Positions 1,373-38,584 are shown, counted from the stretch's first letter. The stretch: 64,000 bases of DNA from Patescibacteria group bacterium (GCA_018971685.1 JAGXAG010000006.1:62-64061), one strand, 5' to 3'. Notes: generated by a model from the letters alone, not told the origin. Made by a program: numbers and translations.

Positions 1373-3144
1373 ACCTGCAGAAAGGAAAAATATATATCGG
1401 CTTCGCGGTACTTTTGCGCTACATGGGGAAATACAAGCGGGACATCATAATACTTTCGATCATGGGCGTGATTTCCGCGATCGGCAACGGCACCATACCT
1501 TATATCGCCGGCAAATTCTTCGACGCCGTGACCGGATCGGCCGCGGTTACATTCATGGACCAAACCATGCCTCTGTATATCGCCGTGCTTGCGCTCTGGA
1601 CCGTGATCCAGCTCGCCACTTACTTCATGGACTGGCGAATAAATATCATGAGCGAATATTTTTCCAACGCCGTCTGGCTCGATTATTTGGCGAACGGATT
1701 TGGATTCTTGCTGCTCTTGCCGATGTCGTTCCACAAGAAGCACAAAATCGGCGAGATCGGCAATAAAATAGGCATGGCCGCCGGCTCGCTCGAGACTATT
1801 GCCGGCAGGATCGTCATCGATTTGGCGCCGCAGATCCTGTCGATAGTGATCGCGCTCGGCATCGCCTTTTATATGAAGCCGATCATGGCGGCACTGCTCT
1901 TGGCCGGCCTGATCGTCTATTTGTTCGTCCTCGTACGCAAGATCAAACCTCTGGCCGGTTACCAAAAGGCGTATTATGATATCGTCTCGACCGCTGTTTG
2001 GGGAGACAATTATGACACTATCGGCAACGCCATCGCCGTGAAGCAGGCCACGGCCGAAGAATACGAGCGGGCCAAAATGTCCAGAAACGCCAAGAAGGCC
2101 TTGCCGCTGTGGATGCGGCTGACCAAAGTTTGGGGTAACTTGAGTTTGTACCAGCGGCTGACGATACTTTCGACGCAGGTGGTTATATTTATTTTGTCGG
2201 CCATCTTCATCCGGGCGGGTACGATGACTATCGGCGAATTGATCGCGTTCAATGCTTACGCCGCGATGATATTCGGGCCGTTCGTGACTATAGCCAGGAA
2301 TTGGCAGACGATCCAGAACGGCGTGGTCAATATCAACGAGACCGAGAAAATCCTGGAAATGGAGCCGGAAAACTACCGTCCGAAACGCGCGGTCGATTTT
2401 GAGATCAAGGGCGGCATATCGTTCCGGAATGTTAGCTTCCAATACGACAGCGGCAAACCGGTCTTGGAGGACATTTCCTTCGAGGTGAAGCCCGGCGAAG
2501 TGGTTGCGCTGGTCGGAGAGTCGGGGGTGGGCAAGAGCACGCTGGTCGACCTGGTGTCGGGTTACCATTTCCCGGACAAAGGAACGGTGGCGATCGACGG
2601 GCACGATATCCGCGAAGTCGATTTGCGCAAGCTGCGGTCGAAGATAGCGGTGGTGCCGCAGGAGGTGGTTTTATTCAACGACACGATCGAAATGAATATC
2701 AAATACGGCAACTTCGAAGCGCCGGCGGAGCGCCTGGCGGAAGCGGCGCGCAAGGCGGATGCCGTCGGCTTCATCGAGAAATTCCCGGACAAGTGGCGGC
2801 AATTGGTGGGCGAGCGCGGCATCAAGCTTTCGGTCGGCCAGAAGCAGAGGGTTTCGATCGCGCGGGCGATCTTGCGGGATCCGGTCATACTCATTCTCGA
2901 CGAACCGACCTCGGCGCTGGATGCCGGCACGGAAAAGACGATCACGGGTTCATTGGACGGATTGATGCGCGGCAAGACGACCTTCATCATCGCTCACCGC
3001 CTGTCGACAGTCCGCCGCGCGGATATCATTCTGGTCTTCAAAGGCGGCAAGATCATCGAGCGCGGCCGCCACGAAGAGTTGTTGAAAATCGCCGGTGGCG
3101 AATACAGACGGCTGTATGAATTGCAGATAGGGCTGCACGGGTAG
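1369..3144 (+). CDS. ABC transporter, fused permease/ATPase (MsbA/MdlB-like exporter)
   Basis: TM domain, Walker A GESGVGKS, LSVGQKQR signature, ILDEPTS. Confidence 0.95.
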   Translation: MNLQKGKIYIGFAVLLRYMGKYKRDIIILSIMGVISAIGNGTIPYIAGKFFDAVTGSAAVTFMDQTMPLYIAVLALWTVIQLATYFMDWRINIMSEYFSNAVWLDYLANGFGFLLLLPMSFHKKHKIGEIGNKIGMAAGSLETIAGRIVIDLAPQILSIVIALGIAFYMKPIMAALLLAGLIVYLFVLVRKIKPLAGYQKAYYDIVSTAVWGDNYDTIGNAIAVKQATAEEYERAKMSRNAKKALPLWMRLTKVWGNLSLYQRLTILSTQVVIFILSAIFIRAGTMTIGELIAFNAYAAMIFGPFVTIARNWQTIQNGVVNINETEKILEMEPENYRPKRAVDFEIKGGISFRNVSFQYDSGKPVLEDISFEVKPGEVVALVGESGVGKSTLVDLVSGYHFPDKGTVAIDGHDIREVDLRKLRSKIAVVPQEVVLFNDTIEMNIKYGNFEAPAERLAEAARKADAVGFIEKFPDKWRQLVGERGIKLSVGQKQRVSIARAILRDPVILILDEPTSALDAGTEKTITGSLDGLMRGKTTFIIAHRLSTVRRADIILVFKGGKIIERGRHEELLKIAGGEYRRLYELQIGLHG

Positions 3145-4975: not shown

Positions 4976-6641
4976 ACCCCATTGGCAGCCATATAACCGC
5001 CCGGGCGCCGAGATCTTTGCCTTTTGACTCTATCTTGAACTCGCCGCGGTGCGCTTTGACTATGGCTTTGACGACGGAAAGCCCGATGCCCATGCCGATG
5101 GGATTGAGCTCGCGCGCTTGATGGCCGCGGAAGAACAGGGAAGTGCCGATCTTCCCGCGCTCTTCAGGACTGATGCCTATGCCGGTATTCTCGATTGCGA
5201 TCTCGAATAAGCCGCCGCGCTTGCCGGTGGTTATGGAGACAGAACCGTTCCGGCGGTTGTATTTGACGGCGTTCTCGACCACGATGAACAAACATTCCCG
5301 CATCTTATCGTAATCGACCGGGAATTCCGGCCAGGCGTCGGCATTCATGGGATACGATACGGCTATGCCGGACCGCTCTATGTCCAAGTGCAATTCGTCA
5401 ATCACTTCCCGGACGGCCGGCATGAGGCTGCCCACGGAAGTATTCAGGATATTGGTGCCGGCCTTGATGGCGGTTATGTCCAGGAAGTCGTCCACGATAT
5501 GCGTCAGGCGGTCTACTGAGCCGCTTGCCTCCATGAGCGCTTGCCTGGCTTCGCCGTCGATCTCCCCGCGCTCTCCTTTGAGCAGAGATTCTATTTCCCA
5601 ACGGATGCCGGTTATGGGCGTGCGCAAATGGTGCTGGGTGATCATGATGAACTGGTCTTTGGTCTCGTTCAACCTCTCCAGGTCCTTCCGCGCTTTTTTC
5701 TCCATCTCGTACGCGTGCTTCACTTCGGCGGTCTGGTCGGCCACTTTTTGCTCGAGATTTTTGTTGAGGTCGGAAAGTTTGGCGCGCTGTTCGGCTTCGC
5801 GCAGGGAAATCTTCAGCAAATATGTTGCCAGGGCGATGAATACGATGAAAGTCGCCGCGCGGCCGGCGATTCCCCAAGACAGGTCGATGAATATGTTCAC
5901 GAAAAATATGACCGTCATGCCGATCGCCAGCACCTCCGTCGCCACTGCCCGGACATTCATTTGGCGGTATTTGATGATGGAGTAGGCTATGAACGGTATC
6001 CAAACTATCTCCGTCACGGGTCCCAACCAATTAAGGCCGAAATATCCGAATCTGGGCAACACTATGCACATGAGGCTCGGCGGCGTGGCCCCCACGATTA
6101 TCGTCAATAGCATGTATTTCAAATTTCCTTTGGTGTTTTTGTCGGAATAGTATTTGTATTTTCTATAAAGTATCGCCACGCCGTAAGCGAAAAATCCGAA
6201 AAAGACCAACTCAAACAGAAACGACAACGATCCGAAACGCCATCCCCACGGATGCGCGGCGCTTATCGGAAATTCGCTGTAGATTATCTTATCCGTGAAT
6301 AAGAACAGGTAGCAGAATATGATCTGTAAAATTACCAGCGACCAAGTGAACAGAGTGCTCGGCTTCTTGTCTTCGGGGTAAGTGATGAAGAAATATAGAA
6401 ACGCTGTCGCTATGGTGCTGCCCAAGAAATAAGTCAGCCGAGAATAAAAAAGAGCGCTTTGGTAATCTCTGGAAGACACGAACAATCCCACGCAAAATAT
6501 CCAAATCGTGACCCATAATATACTGTGCGCGAATGCGCGCGACGACAAATTTTTACTTCCCAAAAATACCACTAATGCAAGACTGCCGATCAGAATTGAT
6601 GTAAACCAAATTAGCGTGCCGTATATGGTTATTTCAGGCAT
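4974..6641 (-). CDS. Sensor histidine kinase with N-terminal 7TM (HisKA_7TM-like) domain
   Basis: Multi-TM N-terminus, H-box QHHLRTP, ENAVKY, NTGIGI, GIGL. Confidence 0.9.
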   Translation of the reverse strand: MPEITIYGTLIWFTSILIGSLALVVFLGSKNLSSRAFAHSILWVTIWIFCVGLFVSSRDYQSALFYSRLTYFLGSTIATAFLYFFITYPEDKKPSTLFTWSLVILQIIFCYLFLFTDKIIYSEFPISAAHPWGWRFGSLSFLFELVFFGFFAYGVAILYRKYKYYSDKNTKGNLKYMLLTIIVGATPPSLMCIVLPRFGYFGLNWLGPVTEIVWIPFIAYSIIKYRQMNVRAVATEVLAIGMTVIFFVNIFIDLSWGIAGRAATFIVFIALATYLLKISLREAEQRAKLSDLNKNLEQKVADQTAEVKHAYEMEKKARKDLERLNETKDQFIMITQHHLRTPITGIRWEIESLLKGERGEIDGEARQALMEASGSVDRLTHIVDDFLDITAIKAGTNILNTSVGSLMPAVREVIDELHLDIERSGIAVSYPMNADAWPEFPVDYDKMRECLFIVVENAVKYNRRNGSVSITTGKRGGLFEIAIENTGIGISPEERGKIGTSLFFRGHQARELNPIGMGIGLSVVKAIVKAHRGEFKIESKGKDLGARAVIWLPMG

Positions 6642-33273: not shown

Positions 33274-33344
33274 TGCGGGATCATCTAGTGGTAGGATGCG
33301 ACTCTCTGAAAGTCGTCACCTTGGTTCGAATCCAAGTCCCGCAG
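33274..33344 (+). tRNA. tRNA-Gln (CTG)
   Basis: CGACT-CT-CTG-AA-AGTCG. Confidence 0.93.
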
Positions 33345-33917
33345 CATTCTAGGATTTTTGGAATAAATTTCTCCAGAATCCTTTATGGTTCCTTGCTTTT
33401 TGCTCAGTTCTAACATTTCAGAAATGAGCCAAAGCTCGTCATGGATGTTTTCGAGCGGTAGAAGCAAATCGTCCAATGAAATTCTAAGTTTTCCGCGATC
33501 GAGCAAGTAGTTCGAACCTATTCCGGTGAAGACCTCTTTCTTCATGTCTGCATTATTAGAAGACACAGCCTTCTTCATGACCCGGACGGCCTTCTCAGCA
33601 AAGTTGAACCCACGCTCGGCAATATCAAGCCAATTCTCGACTCTTTTATCGACATCTTTGAGTAAGGTAAACAGCCTTTCTTTCTCCTGGGTAAGCTCAA
33701 TTTTCTTCCTCTTGAATTCTTCCTCACTAATCTCGCTGTCAGCACGCATATCAATGAGCTTGTCGATCTTGCGCAGGCAGGCGTCATAATCTTTCTGCTG
33801 TTTGCCGAATATGCGGTCACGGTCCTCAATTTCTCTGTGATTAAGCTCCTTGAGAGTAGTCATGGCCCATTTCTTGAAATCTTCAGGGATCTCAAATTTG
33901 GCTACGATTTTATTGAT
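33285..33917 (-). pseudogene. C-terminal remnant of a large serine recombinase, ending antisense within tRNA-Gln
   Basis: IPEDFKKWA, coiled coil LIDM...EISEEEFKRKK..L, K.E....IGSNY.L, ending MLRDLDSNQ in the tRNA T-arm. Catalytic N-terminus absent (in-frame stop at about 33920). Confidence 0.7.
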
Positions 33918-34207
33918 CTATCCATGGTAATAGTAATTTCTTCCAATCTACACTTTTTCAGAAAAAAAGAAATAGTGATGCGGACCGTGGGGTAGAGGTT
34001 AAGCTTGGAAATATGGCTTAGAATCGAACATGCGTGAATTTGCCGAATTTTGCCTCACACGGCCGAGAAGAAATCCGTAGCCGTAACGTTGGGCCATTCG
34101 GTTTGGAAAATGGCACACCGGGGCGAACAGGTGGCAAGAATGGTGTGAAGAATCCGAGGAGAGACCTGGGACCGAGCAATAGAGCCGTATAATGGTCTGG
34201 ACAGCGC

Positions 34208-34237
34208 TTGACTTTTGTTATGTAATTATGCTATAAT
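34208..34237 (+). promoter_or_regulatory. Strong sigma70 promoter heading the cassette-like array
   Basis: TTGACT-18 nt-TATAAT with extended -10 TG. Confidence 0.75.
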
Positions 34238-34374
34238 ATACAACGTAAGCACTACGAAAAACCGTGCTGAACCGCACAGGAATCTTTCTCGGATTCCTAT
34301 CATATGCCTCTAGAGTGTTTCTGGAGAAATGATTCCAATTATGGAGCGTGGTAAATCTCTGAAAGGAGATAAAA

Positions 34375-34986
34375 ATGAGAGAGTACATTGTTAACCTTAC
34401 GAATAACCTCATTGGCGAACACCAGTTCGACTCGATGATGGCCAACCTGACTAACGAGGGCGAGTTTATATTGCAAGCTTCTCGTGAGTTGTTGGTTCAG
34501 AATGTTTCGCGCATGTCCCCCGAAACTCTCGGTAGGATTCTGTGCGAACTGGATGGCGATGATATCAAGCCCGGGGTGCATTTCGAGCTTTCGGTTAACG
34601 AGAAGTGCGAGCGTTCGATACGCATTCTCGTTTCCGGATTGCTCGCACAGAGCATCTACAACCGTCTTTCGGGCAGAATCCCTTGCGGATACACCCGTCG
34701 CGGCACTGTCAGCCCGGAATTCAAGGCACTCATCGGCCAATTCGTTCAGCGCCGTCAGGATTATCTGGCCGGACTCAAATCCGGATCGTCCATGCTTAAG
34801 ATCACTTACCAGGGCAAGCAATTGACCTGCGTATATCTGAGGCATACCCAGGACACAGTTACGGTCCAGACGACGAAAGAGATCGTAGATCACCTGTTCA
34901 ACAATGGCACGCTGTGCCTCTCTGGTCCCTTCACTGACATGGCAGTTAAGTTCAAGTTGAACGAGGTCCAGATCGCCAATGGTTAG
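34375..34986 (+). CDS. Hypothetical protein (array gene 1)
   Basis: AAGGAG RBS, 203 aa. Confidence 0.75.
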   Translation: MREYIVNLTNNLIGEHQFDSMMANLTNEGEFILQASRELLVQNVSRMSPETLGRILCELDGDDIKPGVHFELSVNEKCERSIRILVSGLLAQSIYNRLSGRIPCGYTRRGTVSPEFKALIGQFVQRRQDYLAGLKSGSSMLKITYQGKQLTCVYLRHTQDTVTVQTTKEIVDHLFNNGTLCLSGPFTDMAVKFKLNEVQIANG

Positions 34987-35013
34987 TCACTTTCGAGATT
35001 GAATGCAATCTCG

Positions 35014-35090
35014 GCCTCACAGAAATGTGGGGCACTCTAATGGATTCACGACACGGCGTCGCGGATCCTGAAAGTTTCAGTTCTTTAAAC
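35014..35090 (+). repeat. Array spacer element, copy 1
   Basis: GCCTCACA/TGTGGGGC hairpin, then ACTCTAAT-GGATTCACGAC..GTCGCGGATCC-TGAAAGT, then AGTTCTTTAAA. Confidence 0.85.
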
Positions 35091-35112
35091 CAAAATACGG
35101 AAGGAGTAGTGA

Positions 35113-35706
35113 ATGAATTCGAATCAAGTTCTGATCTGGCTGAGCAGCCTCATTGCGCTGCTCCTGTACTATCCACTGATCTCCGGAATCCTCAAGGGCG
35201 AAATTAAGCAAAGTGTCGCCACATGGATCCTCTGGGTTTCTCTGGATACGATTGCCCTCGTCAGCATCATCATGCAAAAAGGCAACTATCTGCTTCTGGT
35301 GTTCTACTGCACCTGCGGCACTATAGTCACCTTATCCCTCGTTTACAAGCGACTGTTCAGTTGGACAAGATTCGAGAGCTTTGTTCTCGGACTTGTTGTC
35401 ATCTGTCTTGTTGTTTGGGGCTTGAGTGGATCGAGGTGGGCTACAATCGCAAGCACTATCGCCGTGTGCATTTCCGGTGCTCCGCAGATCCGTGATTCAT
35501 GGCGGACACCTGATCGGACTACCGGATTGATCTACATGGGATACGTTCTCGCGAATAGCCTCTCCTTTTTCGGAGGCAAGACGTGGACGATCGAAGAGAG
35601 ATTCTATCCGGGAATGATGGCGCTTCTTTGTCTGACGATTGCTACGGCGTCGTTCAGGAAGAAAGACCAGAAGTCTCCGGTGATCTCCGTAACCGCGCCG
35701 CTTTGA
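35113..35706 (+). CDS. Multi-pass membrane protein, PQ-loop-like (array gene 2)
   Basis: About 7 TM helices, TWILW, APQIRDSW..P; AAGGAG RBS. Confidence 0.8.
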   Translation: MNSNQVLIWLSSLIALLLYYPLISGILKGEIKQSVATWILWVSLDTIALVSIIMQKGNYLLLVFYCTCGTIVTLSLVYKRLFSWTRFESFVLGLVVICLVVWGLSGSRWATIASTIAVCISGAPQIRDSWRTPDRTTGLIYMGYVLANSLSFFGGKTWTIEERFYPGMMALLCLTIATASFRKKDQKSPVISVTAPL

Positions 35707-35720
35707 AAAACGCGCAACCC

Positions 35721-35810
35721 GGGTAATATGTTAGCGGCATATTACCCATTCAACTGGATTCATGATGGTTAGTCATGATCGTGGATCCTGAGAGTTATAG
35801 TTCCTTCAAA
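35721..35810 (+). repeat. Array spacer element, copy 2
   Basis: GGGTAATATG/CATATTACCC, then ATTCAACT-GGATTCATGAT..ATCGTGGATCC-TGAGAGT, then AGTTCCTTCAAA. Confidence 0.85.
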
Positions 35811-35829
35811 CATCGAACCCCTTAATCGT

Positions 35830-36174
35830 ATGGACGAATATGATGCAGTAAGAGCTGCGTCCGATTGGGGCTATAGGTTGGCTGACGCACACAAGTCGCA
35901 GGCTCGAATGTGTTCTGACACTCAACGCACGGAGGCGTGCCGGGAATCAGCATATGTTTCGATGTCTGGATCCTATGTAAGGATGGCTAAAATGGTTGTC
36001 GGGTTTACCAAAAGCGCTCCATATTCAAGTGCTACCGATGCGACTTTGGCGGTTATCTGCCAATGTCCAGGGTGCAAGGAGTTGTATTGGTACCACATCA
36101 ACAAGGAAGCCGTCCAAGCATTTGTGTTGCATTGCCCATCGTGGCCGCCGGAGCAGAAAGATAAGTTTAAGTGA
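35830..36174 (+). CDS. Small Cys-rich hypothetical protein (array gene 3)
   Basis: CQCPGCKELYWYH, a possible zinc-binding motif. Confidence 0.7.
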   Translation: MDEYDAVRAASDWGYRLADAHKSQARMCSDTQRTEACRESAYVSMSGSYVRMAKMVVGFTKSAPYSSATDATLAVICQCPGCKELYWYHINKEAVQAFVLHCPSWPPEQKDKFK

Positions 36175-36180
36175 TGTTTA

Positions 36181-36254
36181 GGGGCAAGGTTCTATTCCTT
36201 GCCCCACTCAATTGAGTCTACGACTGAAGTCGCGGATTCATAGAGTTCTTTGAG
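36181..36254 (+). repeat. Array spacer element, copy 3
   Basis: GGGGCAAGG/CCTTGCCCC, then ACTCAAT-TGAGTCTACGAC..GTCGCGGATTCA-TAGAGTTCTTTGA. Confidence 0.85.
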
Positions 36255-36272
36255 TCGACAATTCAACCAGGA

Positions 36273-36578
36273 GTGAAAATGAATATTGAAATGCATGGAC
36301 TGCCGGATGATGAAGGCATTGTGTCCAACGTTGGCGAGGCAATCTGGCGTCAGCTCATTGTTACGCTGCCGGCGGCAGAATCGCGAGAATGTGCGGTGAC
36401 GAACGTCCCCTCACATTCGTTCAACCACGAGGGTATGCGTGTGCCGTTCCTGCGAATTTATTCTGACAAGAAGGCTGATTTCGCAACGGCTCGCAAACTG
36501 CTCAAACCTATCCGCTTGCCGGGCACGCAAAAGAAATTTGTCGAATGTGTGCTCCTCGCAGATTGCTGGGAAGAATGA
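36273..36578 (+). CDS. Hypothetical protein (array gene 4)
   Basis: AGGAG RBS, about 100 aa. Confidence 0.7.
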   Translation: MKMNIEMHGLPDDEGIVSNVGEAIWRQLIVTLPAAESRECAVTNVPSHSFNHEGMRVPFLRIYSDKKADFATARKLLKPIRLPGTQKKFVECVLLADCWEE

Positions 36579-36585
36579 GTGTACA

Positions 36586-36667
36586 GGAGCAAGGTCCAAT
36601 CCCTTGCTCCACTCAATTGGATTTACGATCATGACGATCGCGAATCCTGAGAGTTCAGTTCTTTAAA
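36586..36667 (+). repeat. Array spacer element, copy 4
   Basis: GGAGCAAGG/CCTTGCTCC, then ACTCAATT-GGATTTACGATC..GATCGCGAATCC-TGAGAGT, then AGTTCTTTAAA. Confidence 0.85.
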
Positions 36668-36711
36668 TACGGTTTTAATTAGGTGTACCGAAACAATACA
36701 CCAGTTTAGGA

Positions 36712-37134
36712 GTGAATATGAAAACGGTGAAAATCTTCGTGCATGTTTCAAGTTCAGGCGCACGCTCATATTTCCCTCAGGATAAAAACGTAGGGAGATT
36801 GTGTGAGCAAGACGGTCTTCAGTTCATGCCGAAAAAGCCGCGTGGACAATGGGGAGTGATCTCCTTCAGCGAGGCCAGGCGTCGAGACAAGAAGGCTGAG
36901 GCCAAAGTGGGTGAAAATGGCTTCAAGATCATCCGGCATATTGCCGAGAATCCATGTGGCAAACACCTGGTCAACGGTCGGATTGTGAGCTGTCGCCAGA
37001 TTACGGCCGAATTCACCAATCGTCTATCAGCGAGTCGCGTCGACAAACTCGTAACGGATGCTATCGGGACCGCACTTGGTGTTCACACGGAAATCGTTCA
37101 TGTGAGCTCGCTCGCTGAAATGAAATTCGTGTAA
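36712..37134 (+). CDS. Hypothetical protein (array gene 5)
   Basis: AGGAG RBS, about 140 aa. Confidence 0.7.
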
Positions 37135-37149
37135 ATTCTGTTTCTTTCA

Positions 37150-37179
37150 AAGGGCCTCGCTAACGGCGCGGCTCTTTTT
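37150..37179 (+). terminator. Intrinsic terminator closing the array
   Basis: AGGGCCTCGC-TAACG-GCGCGGCTCT followed by TTTT. Confidence 0.6.
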
Positions 37180-37195
37180 GTTGTATACTAAAATC

Positions 37196-38584
37196 ATGAA
37201 AAAAGTTAATTTCACTAAGCTCAAAGACCGGCCGAAGATTGAAGATAGGCTTTTTCATAGCAAAGTCATTGAAAGTGTAATTCGAGAAAAAAGAGATTTA
37301 ATAAAAGACCCTGAGCTGTCGAAGATGTTCAACCAATGTTTTCCGAGCACTCTGGATACAACGGTCTATTATCGAGAGGATAATGAAAGTAATCCGGATA
37401 CATTTATTGCAACTGGAGATATTGCGGCCATGTGGCTTAGAGATTCAACCAATCAGGTTTGGCCATATTTGAAATATATCAAAGAAGACGACGATTTGAA
37501 GAAGATGATTCAAGGATTAATATATCGCCAAGCCCGTTGTCTACTTATTGATCCATACGCAAATTCGTTTGAAGATCTGTCAGCCAAACATCCCGTAAAA
37601 AATCCATGGTGGCCACACGGTAAGCATTGGAAAAAAGGAGTTTGGGAAAGAAAATTTGAAATAGACAGCATTGCAGCATTTTTTAGATTGTCTGCAGGCT
37701 ATTTTTCAACAACAAACGATAAGGCTCCTTTTAATTCCTCATGGGTGTCTGCAGTTAAATCTTGTTTGGAAATCATAAGAAAGGAACAAGAGACATTGAA
37801 TAAGTCGGGGGTGAAGGATTTGTTTCGATTTATCATGGCAACTGGTAAGACATTTCCATCTGTTCGACTTTCTGGATATGGTTATCCTGGAAAAAAGTGC
37901 GGATTAGTCAGAAATATTTTTAGACCATCCGATGATGAAGCAGTATTTCCATACTCGATACCATCAAATGCGATGCTTGTAGTTACAATGCGCAATATTG
38001 TTCCAATTCTCAAGGGGCTGGACAATAACTTAGCAGATTCGATCTTGAAGCTAGCGGACGAAATTGATAGTGGCATAAAGAAATATGGCATCGTGAAGCA
38101 TCCAGAGTTTGGAAATATTTATGCATACGAAGTTGACGGCTTTGGCTCTGTCTGTCTCATGGACGATCCGAACGTTCCAAGCCTTCTAAGCCTGCCATAT
38201 CTTGGATATTGTTCGATCGACGATCCTGTATATGTCGCAACTCGCAAATTTATATTTAGTGAGTGGAATCCATTTTATGCAAAAGGGGAAGCAGTATCTG
38301 GGCTTACAAGCCCTCACACAGGAGTTGTGGATCACTTTTGGCCAATGGCCACAATTATCCAAGCCCTTACATCGAGAGATGAGTCAGAAATAATTTCCTG
38401 TCTTAAAGATTTAAAGGAAACTCATGCTGGAACCCATTTTATTCATGAGAGCGTTAATGTCGATGCTCCGCAAAAATTTACTCGGCCATGGTTCGGATGG
38501 GCCAACTCATTATTCGGTGAGCTTATACTCAATGTTCTAGACAATCATCCAACGGCATTAAATTACAATGAACGAGTACTATAA
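37196..38584 (+). CDS. Glycoside hydrolase family 125 (exo-alpha-1,6-mannosidase-like)
   Basis: [54 protein letters not shown]. Confidence 0.92.

Follow-up and report, generated by a model that had tools for sequence, protein, structure and literature searches.

The array at positions 34208-37185 of a 64,000-nt stretch of Patescibacteria DNA (the window), part of a 750-kb genome rated 100% complete and coded here as G000, carries small co-oriented genes separated by four spacers, each made up of a variable GC hairpin (hp1), a conserved imperfect hairpin (hp2) and a short tail. We read these spacers as copies of a genus-wide intercistronic module that would process and insulate messenger RNA (mRNA), provide the next gene with a boxA-like leader, and also serve as portable homology for the shuffling of gene cassettes; judged from sequence comparison, we give this reading a probability of about 0.55. 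The spacers most likely act on mRNA. A preliminary description of the array, made before this analysis, had proposed either a gene-capture array or a repeated RNA processing and antitermination module. The second proposal is favoured by hammerhead ribozymes in the slot of hp2, by an hp1 that lacks a U-tract and by the tail, and the cassette-like layout holds, whereas a dedicated gene-capture system did not emerge. Throughout, G0xx denotes genomes, Lxxx loci and Cn contigs.

The consensus of hp2 is ACTC-AAYT-GGATTYACGA-loop-TCGCGRATCC-TGA-GAGT, directly abutting hp1. The architecture reported earlier was found in all four spacers: a GC hairpin without a U-tract abuts ACTC or ATTC and is followed by the conserved hairpin and the tail. 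We built a covariance model of hp2 (R1) from six copies, which matches exactly six places in the genome (E 1e-12 to 2e-18), namely the four in the window, one between two small genes on C2, and one on C11 that is terminal and lacks a tail. R1 also found matches in 25 of 101 genomes, its own included; the same genus accounts for 23 of 60 and other genera for 1 of 40. Relatives hold 1-4 copies each, often 400-700 nt apart. The covariance-model search and Rfam check suggested by the preliminary description have thus returned a genus-wide family with no match in Rfam. At gathering scores, the Rfam scan of the window gave 11 tRNAs only, and at E up to 5 the scan of the array region gave three chance-level matches, with neither Hammerhead_3 (RF00008) nor any other ribozyme among them. 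An exact-pattern scan of one genome per species yielded 31 loci, about 19 of which are Patescibacteria records holding the element (under labels such as Taylorbacteria and Paceibacterota); the remaining dozen or so, from unrelated phyla, were called chance from titles and gap lengths, not individually. A pattern scan of viral contigs gave one match, in a coding-like context, which fails the model and was discarded as chance. The hp2 element is absent from Rfam, and we did not find it described in the literature searched, on integrons and attC sites in Patescibacteria and on intergenic hairpin repeats in the candidate phyla radiation.

The covariation claimed for the hp2 stem is real but moderate. 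Across 41 aligned copies, 89.9% of cells are paired and 6 of the 14 pairs show changes on both sides; cells with two-sided changes number 18, against 7.2 +/- 2.0 in shuffled alignments, and none of 500 shuffles reaches 18. Control alignments in which the partner was slid by 1-3 columns were 17-48% paired. Since the 41-copy alignment was fitted to the model, it leans towards structure. The element is 36-50 nt long (median 43) and its 14 pairs are accompanied by an internal A.C/U.G tandem and a 4x3 internal loop. The A.C mismatch, previously noted as kept in three of the four window copies, is indeed kept there and in 32 of 37 family copies; it adjoins a frequent U.G pair, and the other strand reads C.A/G.U. 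Near-invariant bases include U6, U11, G12, U15, A18, A21, U61, C70, A73, A75 and G76. The loops vary in sequence and range from 5 to 26 nt, a freedom of length that is easier to reconcile with a folded single strand than with a double-stranded site for a protein. A co-oriented open reading frame (ORF) lies upstream in 32 of 34 cases and downstream in 32 of 34, and the terminal copies on C11 of G000 and in G007 stop exactly after GAGAGT, without a tail. K-turn, put-like and hairpin-ribozyme-like readings of hp2 were dropped by eye, the GA pairs or loops they need being absent.

Upstream of hp2, the minimum free energy (MFE) fold of the preceding 55 nt pairs the base right before ACTC in 38 of 41 copies (median z -3.2), three of these 38 stems being weak (z -0.6 or higher). 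The compensated pairing reported for this first hairpin, GGGGCAAGG/CCTTGCCCC vs GGAGCAAGG/CCTTGCTCC, is correct, and is supported more strongly by the 36 distinct hp1 sequences now collected. The hairpin in the second intergenic space (IG2) and that of its homologue in G010 pair as GGGTAATATG/CATATTACCC and GGTCAATACT/AGTATTGGCC, respectively, so that pairing is kept through several compensatory changes. Among these related, non-independent copies, hp1 stems contain 14 G.U pairs against 3 A.C, an excess that points to the sense strand. The 44-nt double hairpin of IG1 (hp0-hp1, 34994-35033) recurs across the genus at about 84-97% identity, followed by a T-run in three contexts (L094, L095, L096) and by ACTC-hp2 in seven others; hp2 therefore occupies the position of a terminator U-tract. 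We take hp1 to be a terminator-type hairpin that belongs to the upstream gene and whose U-tract has been lost. In its T-run-bearing form the 44-nt double hairpin is a portable terminator after unrelated genes, and it seems to spread as an independent module. A genus-wide terminator search with the hp1 type GGAGCAAGG..CCTTGCTCC found four further copies, all followed by hp2-like hairpins and none by a T-run.

Known ribozymes stand in the same slot in related arrays. On C50 of G035, an array combines four R1 copies with two type III hammerheads, all on the same strand and one of the hammerheads above the Rfam cut-off. In array L054 the Hammerhead_3 matches lie at 2757-2810(-) (52.4 bits, above the cut-off) and 5413-5467(-) (46.2 bits). 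Matches to RF00008 occur in 24 of 93 genus genomes and in none of 14 control genomes. On seven contigs (G024:C22, G015:C93, G004:C22, G035:C50, G005:C38, G021:C11 and G026:C114), hammerheads are interleaved with R1 copies along a single strand, about one gene length apart. The tail, as AGTTCTTT with one mismatch allowed, is found within 45 nt 3' of 19 of 33 distinct hammerhead cores, and at some hammerhead-plus-tail sites the same 5' untranslated region (UTR) module follows. Counted by genome, R1 and hammerheads are both present in 11, R1 only in 12, hammerheads only in 5 and neither in 32 (odds ratio 5.9, Fisher p 0.006; related genomes are not independent). One such array also has a twister-P1-like match of 50.6 bits, below the cut-off of 67.2. 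That hammerheads share the slot and the tail of hp2 favours a function in RNA. Within G000 itself, a hammerhead-like element lies on C5 (20922-20964; L154 1470-1545), scoring 31.8 bits with a core complete by eye. A GC hairpin abuts its stem III ACUCUUC/AGAGU, and the closing stem ACUCU/AGAGU has the frame of the hp2 ACUC/GAGU. The hp2 element is not itself a hammerhead: it forms one stem-loop without the CUGAUGA...GAAA core, and the window has no RF00008 match at E up to 5.

Two further readings of hp2 were considered. It could, although we think this unlikely, represent a new class of small self-cleaving ribozyme, acting alone or stacked on hp1. The idea comes from the combination of an uncatalogued structured RNA, about ten near-invariant unpaired or mismatched bases, and a slot, stem frame and context held in common with the hammerhead and probably with twister. 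Proximity to known ribozymes is what led to twister-sister, pistol and hatchet. Alternatively, hp2 could be a roleless palindrome, selfish or neutral in the manner of repetitive extragenic palindromes (REPs), or a decayed hammerhead without stem II, with cassettes recombining through plain homology. It is an imperfect palindrome in transcribed intergenic DNA, other portable hairpin repeats are present in the genus, and the genome contains one weak Y1 transposase-like match (27 bits); compared with the C5 copy, the hp2 3' strand, CCUGA then GAGU, looks like the start of a hammerhead core joined directly to stem III. We nevertheless hold a roleless origin to be quite improbable, as copy number is low (six here, 1-4 in relatives), orientation is always sense, hp2 meets hp1 and the tail at an exact junction every time, no copies lie beside the Y1-like gene, and near-invariant unpaired bases together with compensatory changes persist in more than 20 species.

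The tail has a consensus close to (TC)AGTTCTTTRAA. This resembles boxA, the antitermination signal of ribosomal RNA (rrn) operons, whose consensus GYTCTTTAANA is described as bound by NusB-S10 (PMC5725501). Measured against GYTCTTTAANA, 2 of 39 tails are perfect, 20 have at most one mismatch and 32 at most two, compared with 0%, 0.065% and 1.4%, respectively, of random 26-mers of G000; at up to one mismatch the enrichment over random sequence is about 300-fold or more. The rrn leaders of the genus carry a hairpin followed by GGN[AT]CTTTGAAA in 11 of 19 cases, and on a weight matrix made from those eleven, 23 of 38 tails score higher than the 95th random percentile. Directly 3' of the conserved array promoter, too, the tail or a motif homologous to it is found in G010, G117, L035, L037, L044, C2 and C11. 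Two 5'-UTR modules were found both behind promoter-plus-motif and behind hp2-plus-tail, and the one following tail 4 comes after the array promoter in G117 and G049; since the same modules stand behind both, promoter-plus-motif and hp2-plus-tail are interchangeable upstream contexts. The tail is positioned in a transcribed leader, after hp2, hammerheads or the array promoter. We regard it as probably a boxA-like leader at which Nus factors would load. On C12 of G000 (33489-34855) there is a NusB domain in a 306-aa open frame, with an RNase III gene directly after it.

A U-rich stretch (UCAGUUCUUU) 3' of a hairpin, situated between cistrons where polarity could be controlled, might also suggest that hp2 and the tail form a leaky intrinsic terminator or attenuator that grades expression along the array. 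This is very unlikely: the U-run is interrupted and begins 2-6 nt past the stem, terminal copies are entirely without a tail, and the tail also occurs 3' of promoters and hammerheads with no terminator hairpin before it. Moreover, the arrays close with canonical terminators, indicating that the organism uses ordinary ones.

The reading we prefer, a module acting on mRNA, can be put as a series of steps. A promoter and a hammerhead both create an RNA 5' end before the same leader, and it is simplest to suppose that hp2, too, marks or makes a cut, either alone or through a nuclease such as RNase III. Cutting would release the upstream mRNA with hp1 as a protective 3' hairpin, and the downstream mRNA would then start at the standard leader. 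Through the tail, RNA polymerase would be loaded afresh with the NusB/S10 (Nus) complex. If the leader is a true boxA, its repetition would be understandable: because each cut unties the previous boxA from the polymerase, every cistron would need a boxA of its own. The module, being repeated and conserved, would in addition serve as portable homology at which gene cassettes swap, in a manner like that of PeSL cassettes (see below).

Several observations weigh against this scheme. The hp2 element has no known catalytic core, and most of the hammerhead matches, although complete in their cores, fall below the Rfam cut-off, with two above it. The hp2 stem is symmetric between strands, the sense strand being the more stable by MFE in 26 of 41 copies (p = 0.054), and the functional strand is accordingly taken from context. 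For the tail, 10 of 38 alone exceed the 99th random percentile of the rrn matrix, and the motif differs at some positions from the boxA of the genus's own rrn operons (TTCTTT vs ACTTTG). The promoter-proximal motif is clear in 7 of 11 promoters, partial in two and lacking in two, and that of the window belongs with the weak cases. The genome, despite its 100% completeness rating, yielded no Rho RNA-binding domain, so the usual target of boxA antitermination may be missing. Lastly, cassette turnover bounded by the element would be equally expected of a recombination site.

Such turnover is seen between relatives. Of the 49 array ORFs, just four pass a Pfam cut-off (Clp protease, methyltransferase, GNAT and Gcw_chp), and blastp across the arrays of different genomes gives almost no links. 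Recurring cassettes differ in position and neighbours, and relatives differ in the ORFs, and the order of ORFs, between conserved spacers, a comparison the preliminary description had pointed to. Gene 2 is second in the window; its 88%-identical homologue is first in G010:C11, behind the promoter and tail and with a different gene next. A gene we call A follows the element in G017 and the promoter in G117 (91% DNA identity), and another, B, follows the element in both G017 and L061 but is preceded by different genes. Two cassettes stand in opposite order in L079 and G037:C69, and at a syntenic place, 5' of a PL14 lyase gene, G007 and G035 carry different arrays. The sequencing runs listed as containing the sequence included no RNA run. 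Two public DNA runs contain contigs of close relatives, mostly 90-95% alike, which have in common with the window the tRNA-Gln, the remnant of the recombinase gene, the promoter, gene 1 and the first of the elements. In the first contig, 624 other letters replace 35088-36201. In the second, 35052 is joined to 35779 and 36182 to 36589, leaving it without genes 2 and 4, and 826 other letters with another element then follow. The break points of this turnover can be placed only to within the conserved element.

These same features would suit a DNA recombination site, with hp2 acting like attC, the promoter-proximal tail like attI, and an unknown recombinase moving [tail-gene-hp1-hp2] cassettes. 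The genes between elements are almost all unrelated orphans, the same cassettes (gene 2, A and B) take different positions and neighbours, cassette order can be inverted, and the public-run relatives lack genes 2 and 4 or have genes 2-3 replaced, with the joints inside elements. Differing arrays at the PL14 lyase place and the exact ending of terminal copies after GAGAGT agree with it too. Furthermore, the stem base is the most conserved part, and ACTCAAY resembles the R'' box RYYYAAC, agreeing with it fully in 12 of 38 copies and on average at 6.0 of 7 positions. Still, we judge such a site unlikely. The R' box GTTRRRY is absent at its paired place, which reads TGAGAGT, in all 38 copies, and occurs within 35 nt in two of them; AAY and TGA in hp2 are unpaired; and attC sites are about 57-141 nt long with extrahelical bases, longer than hp2. 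The window has five genes to four elements and C2 two genes to one element, both arrays ending in an ordinary terminator. As the last gene has no hp2 in either, there are N-1 sites. The slot is also filled by hammerhead ribozymes, which act on RNA.

The search for a recombinase points the same way. None of 108 ORFs flanking mapped array loci encodes a tyrosine recombinase, and one has a serine-recombinase domain. G000 has two tyrosine recombinase genes, both on C11 and away from arrays, and eight large serine recombinase genes, all off the window contig; on that contig, searches for tyrosine and serine recombinases and for Y1 transposases gave a decayed serine remnant alone. The preliminary description was therefore right that the sites do not fit attC and that IntI is lacking, the R' box being absent and no integrase lying near the arrays, while the co-occurring recombinase that it had proposed looking for was not found. 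Decayed remnants of large serine recombinase genes lie beside the tRNA-Gln of the window and on C2 (4153-4485).

Coordinates of the array and its borders are collected in Table 1. The layout described previously, with one strong promoter, five co-oriented ORFs and one closing terminator, was recovered, and placing it in a tRNA island was fair, since the array adjoins tRNA-Gln and a decayed large serine recombinase gene.

Table 1 Features of the array and its borders, numbered from the first letter of the window
Feature	Position	Strand	Remarks
tRNA-Gln(CTG)	33274..33345	+	left border of accessory stretch; ARAGORN and Rfam
Large serine recombinase gene, C-terminal remnant	33346..33924	-	tblastn
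Conserved sequence of ~100 nt upstream of promoter	34040..34160	+	repeated in genome and genus
Array promoter	34208..34237	+	TTGACT-18-TATAAT, extended TG; 11/12 consensus positions
Gene 1 5' leader	34238..34374	+	conserved in G007 (aligned with G007:C21)
Gene 1	34375..34986	+	203 aa, no family; mosaic
IG1 hp0 and hp1	34994..35033	+	portable terminator-type double hairpin, here without U-tract
hp2 copy 1 (ACTC..GAGT)	35034..35075	+	R1, 71.6 bits
Tail 1, TTCAGTTCTTTAAA, boxA-like	35076..35089	+	
Gene 2	35113..35706	+	197 aa, membrane protein by sequence
IG2 hp1	35721..35747	+	covaries with hp1 of G010 homologue
hp2 copy 2 (ATTC..GAGT; A-U replaces A.C)	35748..35795	+	R1, 67.4 bits
Tail 2, TATAGTTCCTTCAAA	35796..35810	+	
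Gene 3	35830..36174	+	114 aa, no family
IG3 hp1	36181..36205	+	
hp2 copy 3 (GAGTCT/GGATTC variant)	36206..36246	+	R1, 58.8 bits
Tail 3, shortened (TCTTTGAG)	36247..36254	+	CAGT of tail missing in IG3
Gene 4	36279..36578	+	99 aa, no family
IG4 hp1	36586..36610	+	
hp2 copy 4	36611..36654	+	R1, 78.4 bits
Tail 4 (TCAGTTCTTTAAA) and 5'-UTR hairpin module	36655..36717	+	
Gene 5	36718..37134	+	138 aa, no family
Closing canonical intrinsic terminator	37149..37185	+	hairpin 37149-37177, -16.3 kcal/mol, then T-run TTTTTGTTG

The array promoter is the sole strong promoter site within 33860-37300 and is a variant of a genus-wide array promoter module close to GGACAG..TTGACTTTTATGTTGTGATATGCTATACT, with homologous sequence on C2 and C11 of G000, in L035, L037, L038, L044 and L048, and in G010, G007 and G117. 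The leader of gene 1 begins with GTAAGCACTACGAAAAA, which leader comparison identifies as a degenerate form of the promoter-proximal boxA-like motif. Promoter, leader and the first ~25 codons of gene 1 are common to G007. Residues 1-128 of the gene 1 product resemble genes of G007 and G014, and residues 105-203 resemble genes of G018, G037 and others. At a threshold of E 0.001, none of the five array ORFs matches Pfam or PHROGs; the closest are two sub-threshold Pfam matches at E about 0.06-0.07. Past the gene 5 stop codon and ahead of the closing hairpin of the terminator, at 37139-37153, there is a tail-like motif (GTTTCTTTCAAAGG). On the left border, the recombinase remnant is 38% identical over 174 aa to the C-terminal portion encoded by an intact 546-aa recombinase gene on C11 (E 3e-25). 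The conserved sequence between the remnant and the promoter has the core GGGCGAACAGGTGGCAAGAA and occurs four times in the genome, the window included, always ahead of a promoter-like site; the further copies are at C3:63543(-), C6:71738(-) and C11:22117(-), each 5' of a promoter-like site. It is conserved in G007, with short matches across many genomes of the genus, and could be the end of an integrative element or a regulator site.

Further observations concern other arrays and the rest of the genome. A protein of roughly 190-200 aa, with a Pro/Glu/Ala-rich N-terminus and a C-terminal winged helix, is encoded divergently from several arrays (L001 2923-3525 (+); L035, L036, L037), and TrmB-type regulators take that divergent place in L040 and L042. 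We considered the winged-helix gene as a partner of the element and rejected it: present in 21 of 93 genus genomes, it is weakly tied to the element (7 with both, 16 with the element only, 8 with the gene only, 29 with neither; odds ratio 1.6, p = 0.54). On C11 of G000 (134000-148000, L003), about 5 kb interrupts the stretch between the ribosomal protein genes L5 and L6. This insert carries genes for a PIF1-type helicase and an FMN reductase; on the opposite strand it has an array that includes the conserved promoter and a terminal hp2. In G017 (L036 11442-11561), a LOOT RNA (RF03000, 91.9 bits) adjoins a serine recombinase gene near an array. The 16S rRNA gene of G000 (C4:3621-5543) is 1923 nt long vs a 1533-position model and hence probably carries an insertion.

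Within one genus, then, hammerheads, a probable twister and an uncatalogued hairpin serve as modules that can replace one another between small orphan genes, with one boxA-like leader after all of them and one conserved promoter before all. The role of many genome-encoded bacterial ribozymes is described as largely unknown (PMC6765202). The interchange of modules supports the idea that they process polycistronic transcripts and makes that idea directly testable, and it hints at why an RNA that has been cut might require a new site for Nus loading. It also makes hp2 a ribozyme candidate to be assayed for self-cleavage. At the genome level, these minimal genomes seem to exchange accessory genes one cassette at a time, with no integron involved.

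Among known systems, integrons and the clusters of attC sites lacking an integrase (CALINs) combine one promoter, co-oriented orphan cassettes and a folded attC for each cassette, IntI not being required for a CALIN. The array is like them in its single promoter and co-oriented orphans, in a folded, imperfect site with conserved bases for each cassette and in a content that varies between relatives; it is unlike them in that its sites have no R' box, are shorter and number N-1, and that it has no integrase. REPs and the mosaic elements built from them (BIMEs) occur in many copies and both orientations, and the copies flank the gene of a RAYT transposase. Here, in contrast, there are six copies per genome, all sense, and the Y1-like gene has no flanking copies. 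The RNase III sites between the early genes of phage T7 comprise about two turns of double-stranded RNA with an internal loop. As in T7, a conserved hairpin with an internal loop lies between cistrons, and a hairpin would remain at the 3' end of the upstream mRNA; the difference is that hp2 has only 14 paired positions, to which a stacked hp1 may add. An RNase III gene is present in the genome.

The PeSL regulatory cassettes of T4-type phages (Arbiol et al. 2010, PMC2839356) are likewise short conserved regulatory modules between orphan genes in hypervariable stretches, and in our arrays too the gain, loss and replacement of genes between relatives is bounded by the element. A PeSL consists of an early promoter and a working terminator, whereas the array module has no promoter and a disarmed terminator, and its host is a cellular chromosome. 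We found no promoter-like site in the four spacer elements; a weak 9/12 site (35703-35732) runs from the last part of gene 2 into the first part of IG2. Compared with the boxB-boxA leaders of rrn operons (PMC5725501), the likeness lies in a hairpin followed by a boxA-like motif in a transcribed leader and in the presence of a NusB gene. The array signal differs in coming after every gene and not in the leader only, in having a conserved hp2 sequence where the rrn boxB is not conserved, and in a genome in which Rho was not found.

Bacterial ribozymes such as type III hammerheads and twister are described as lying near each other, and this proximity has led to new classes (PMC6765202). The processing of polycistronic transcripts by bacterial ribozymes is put forward in the same review as a suggestion, not as established. 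The hp2 element differs from such intercistronic ribozymes in having a single stem-loop without a hammerhead core and no match to an Rfam ribozyme at E up to 5. It is like them in occupying the same slot before the same downstream tail, and the C5 hammerhead shares with it the ACUC/GAGU frame beside a GC hairpin.

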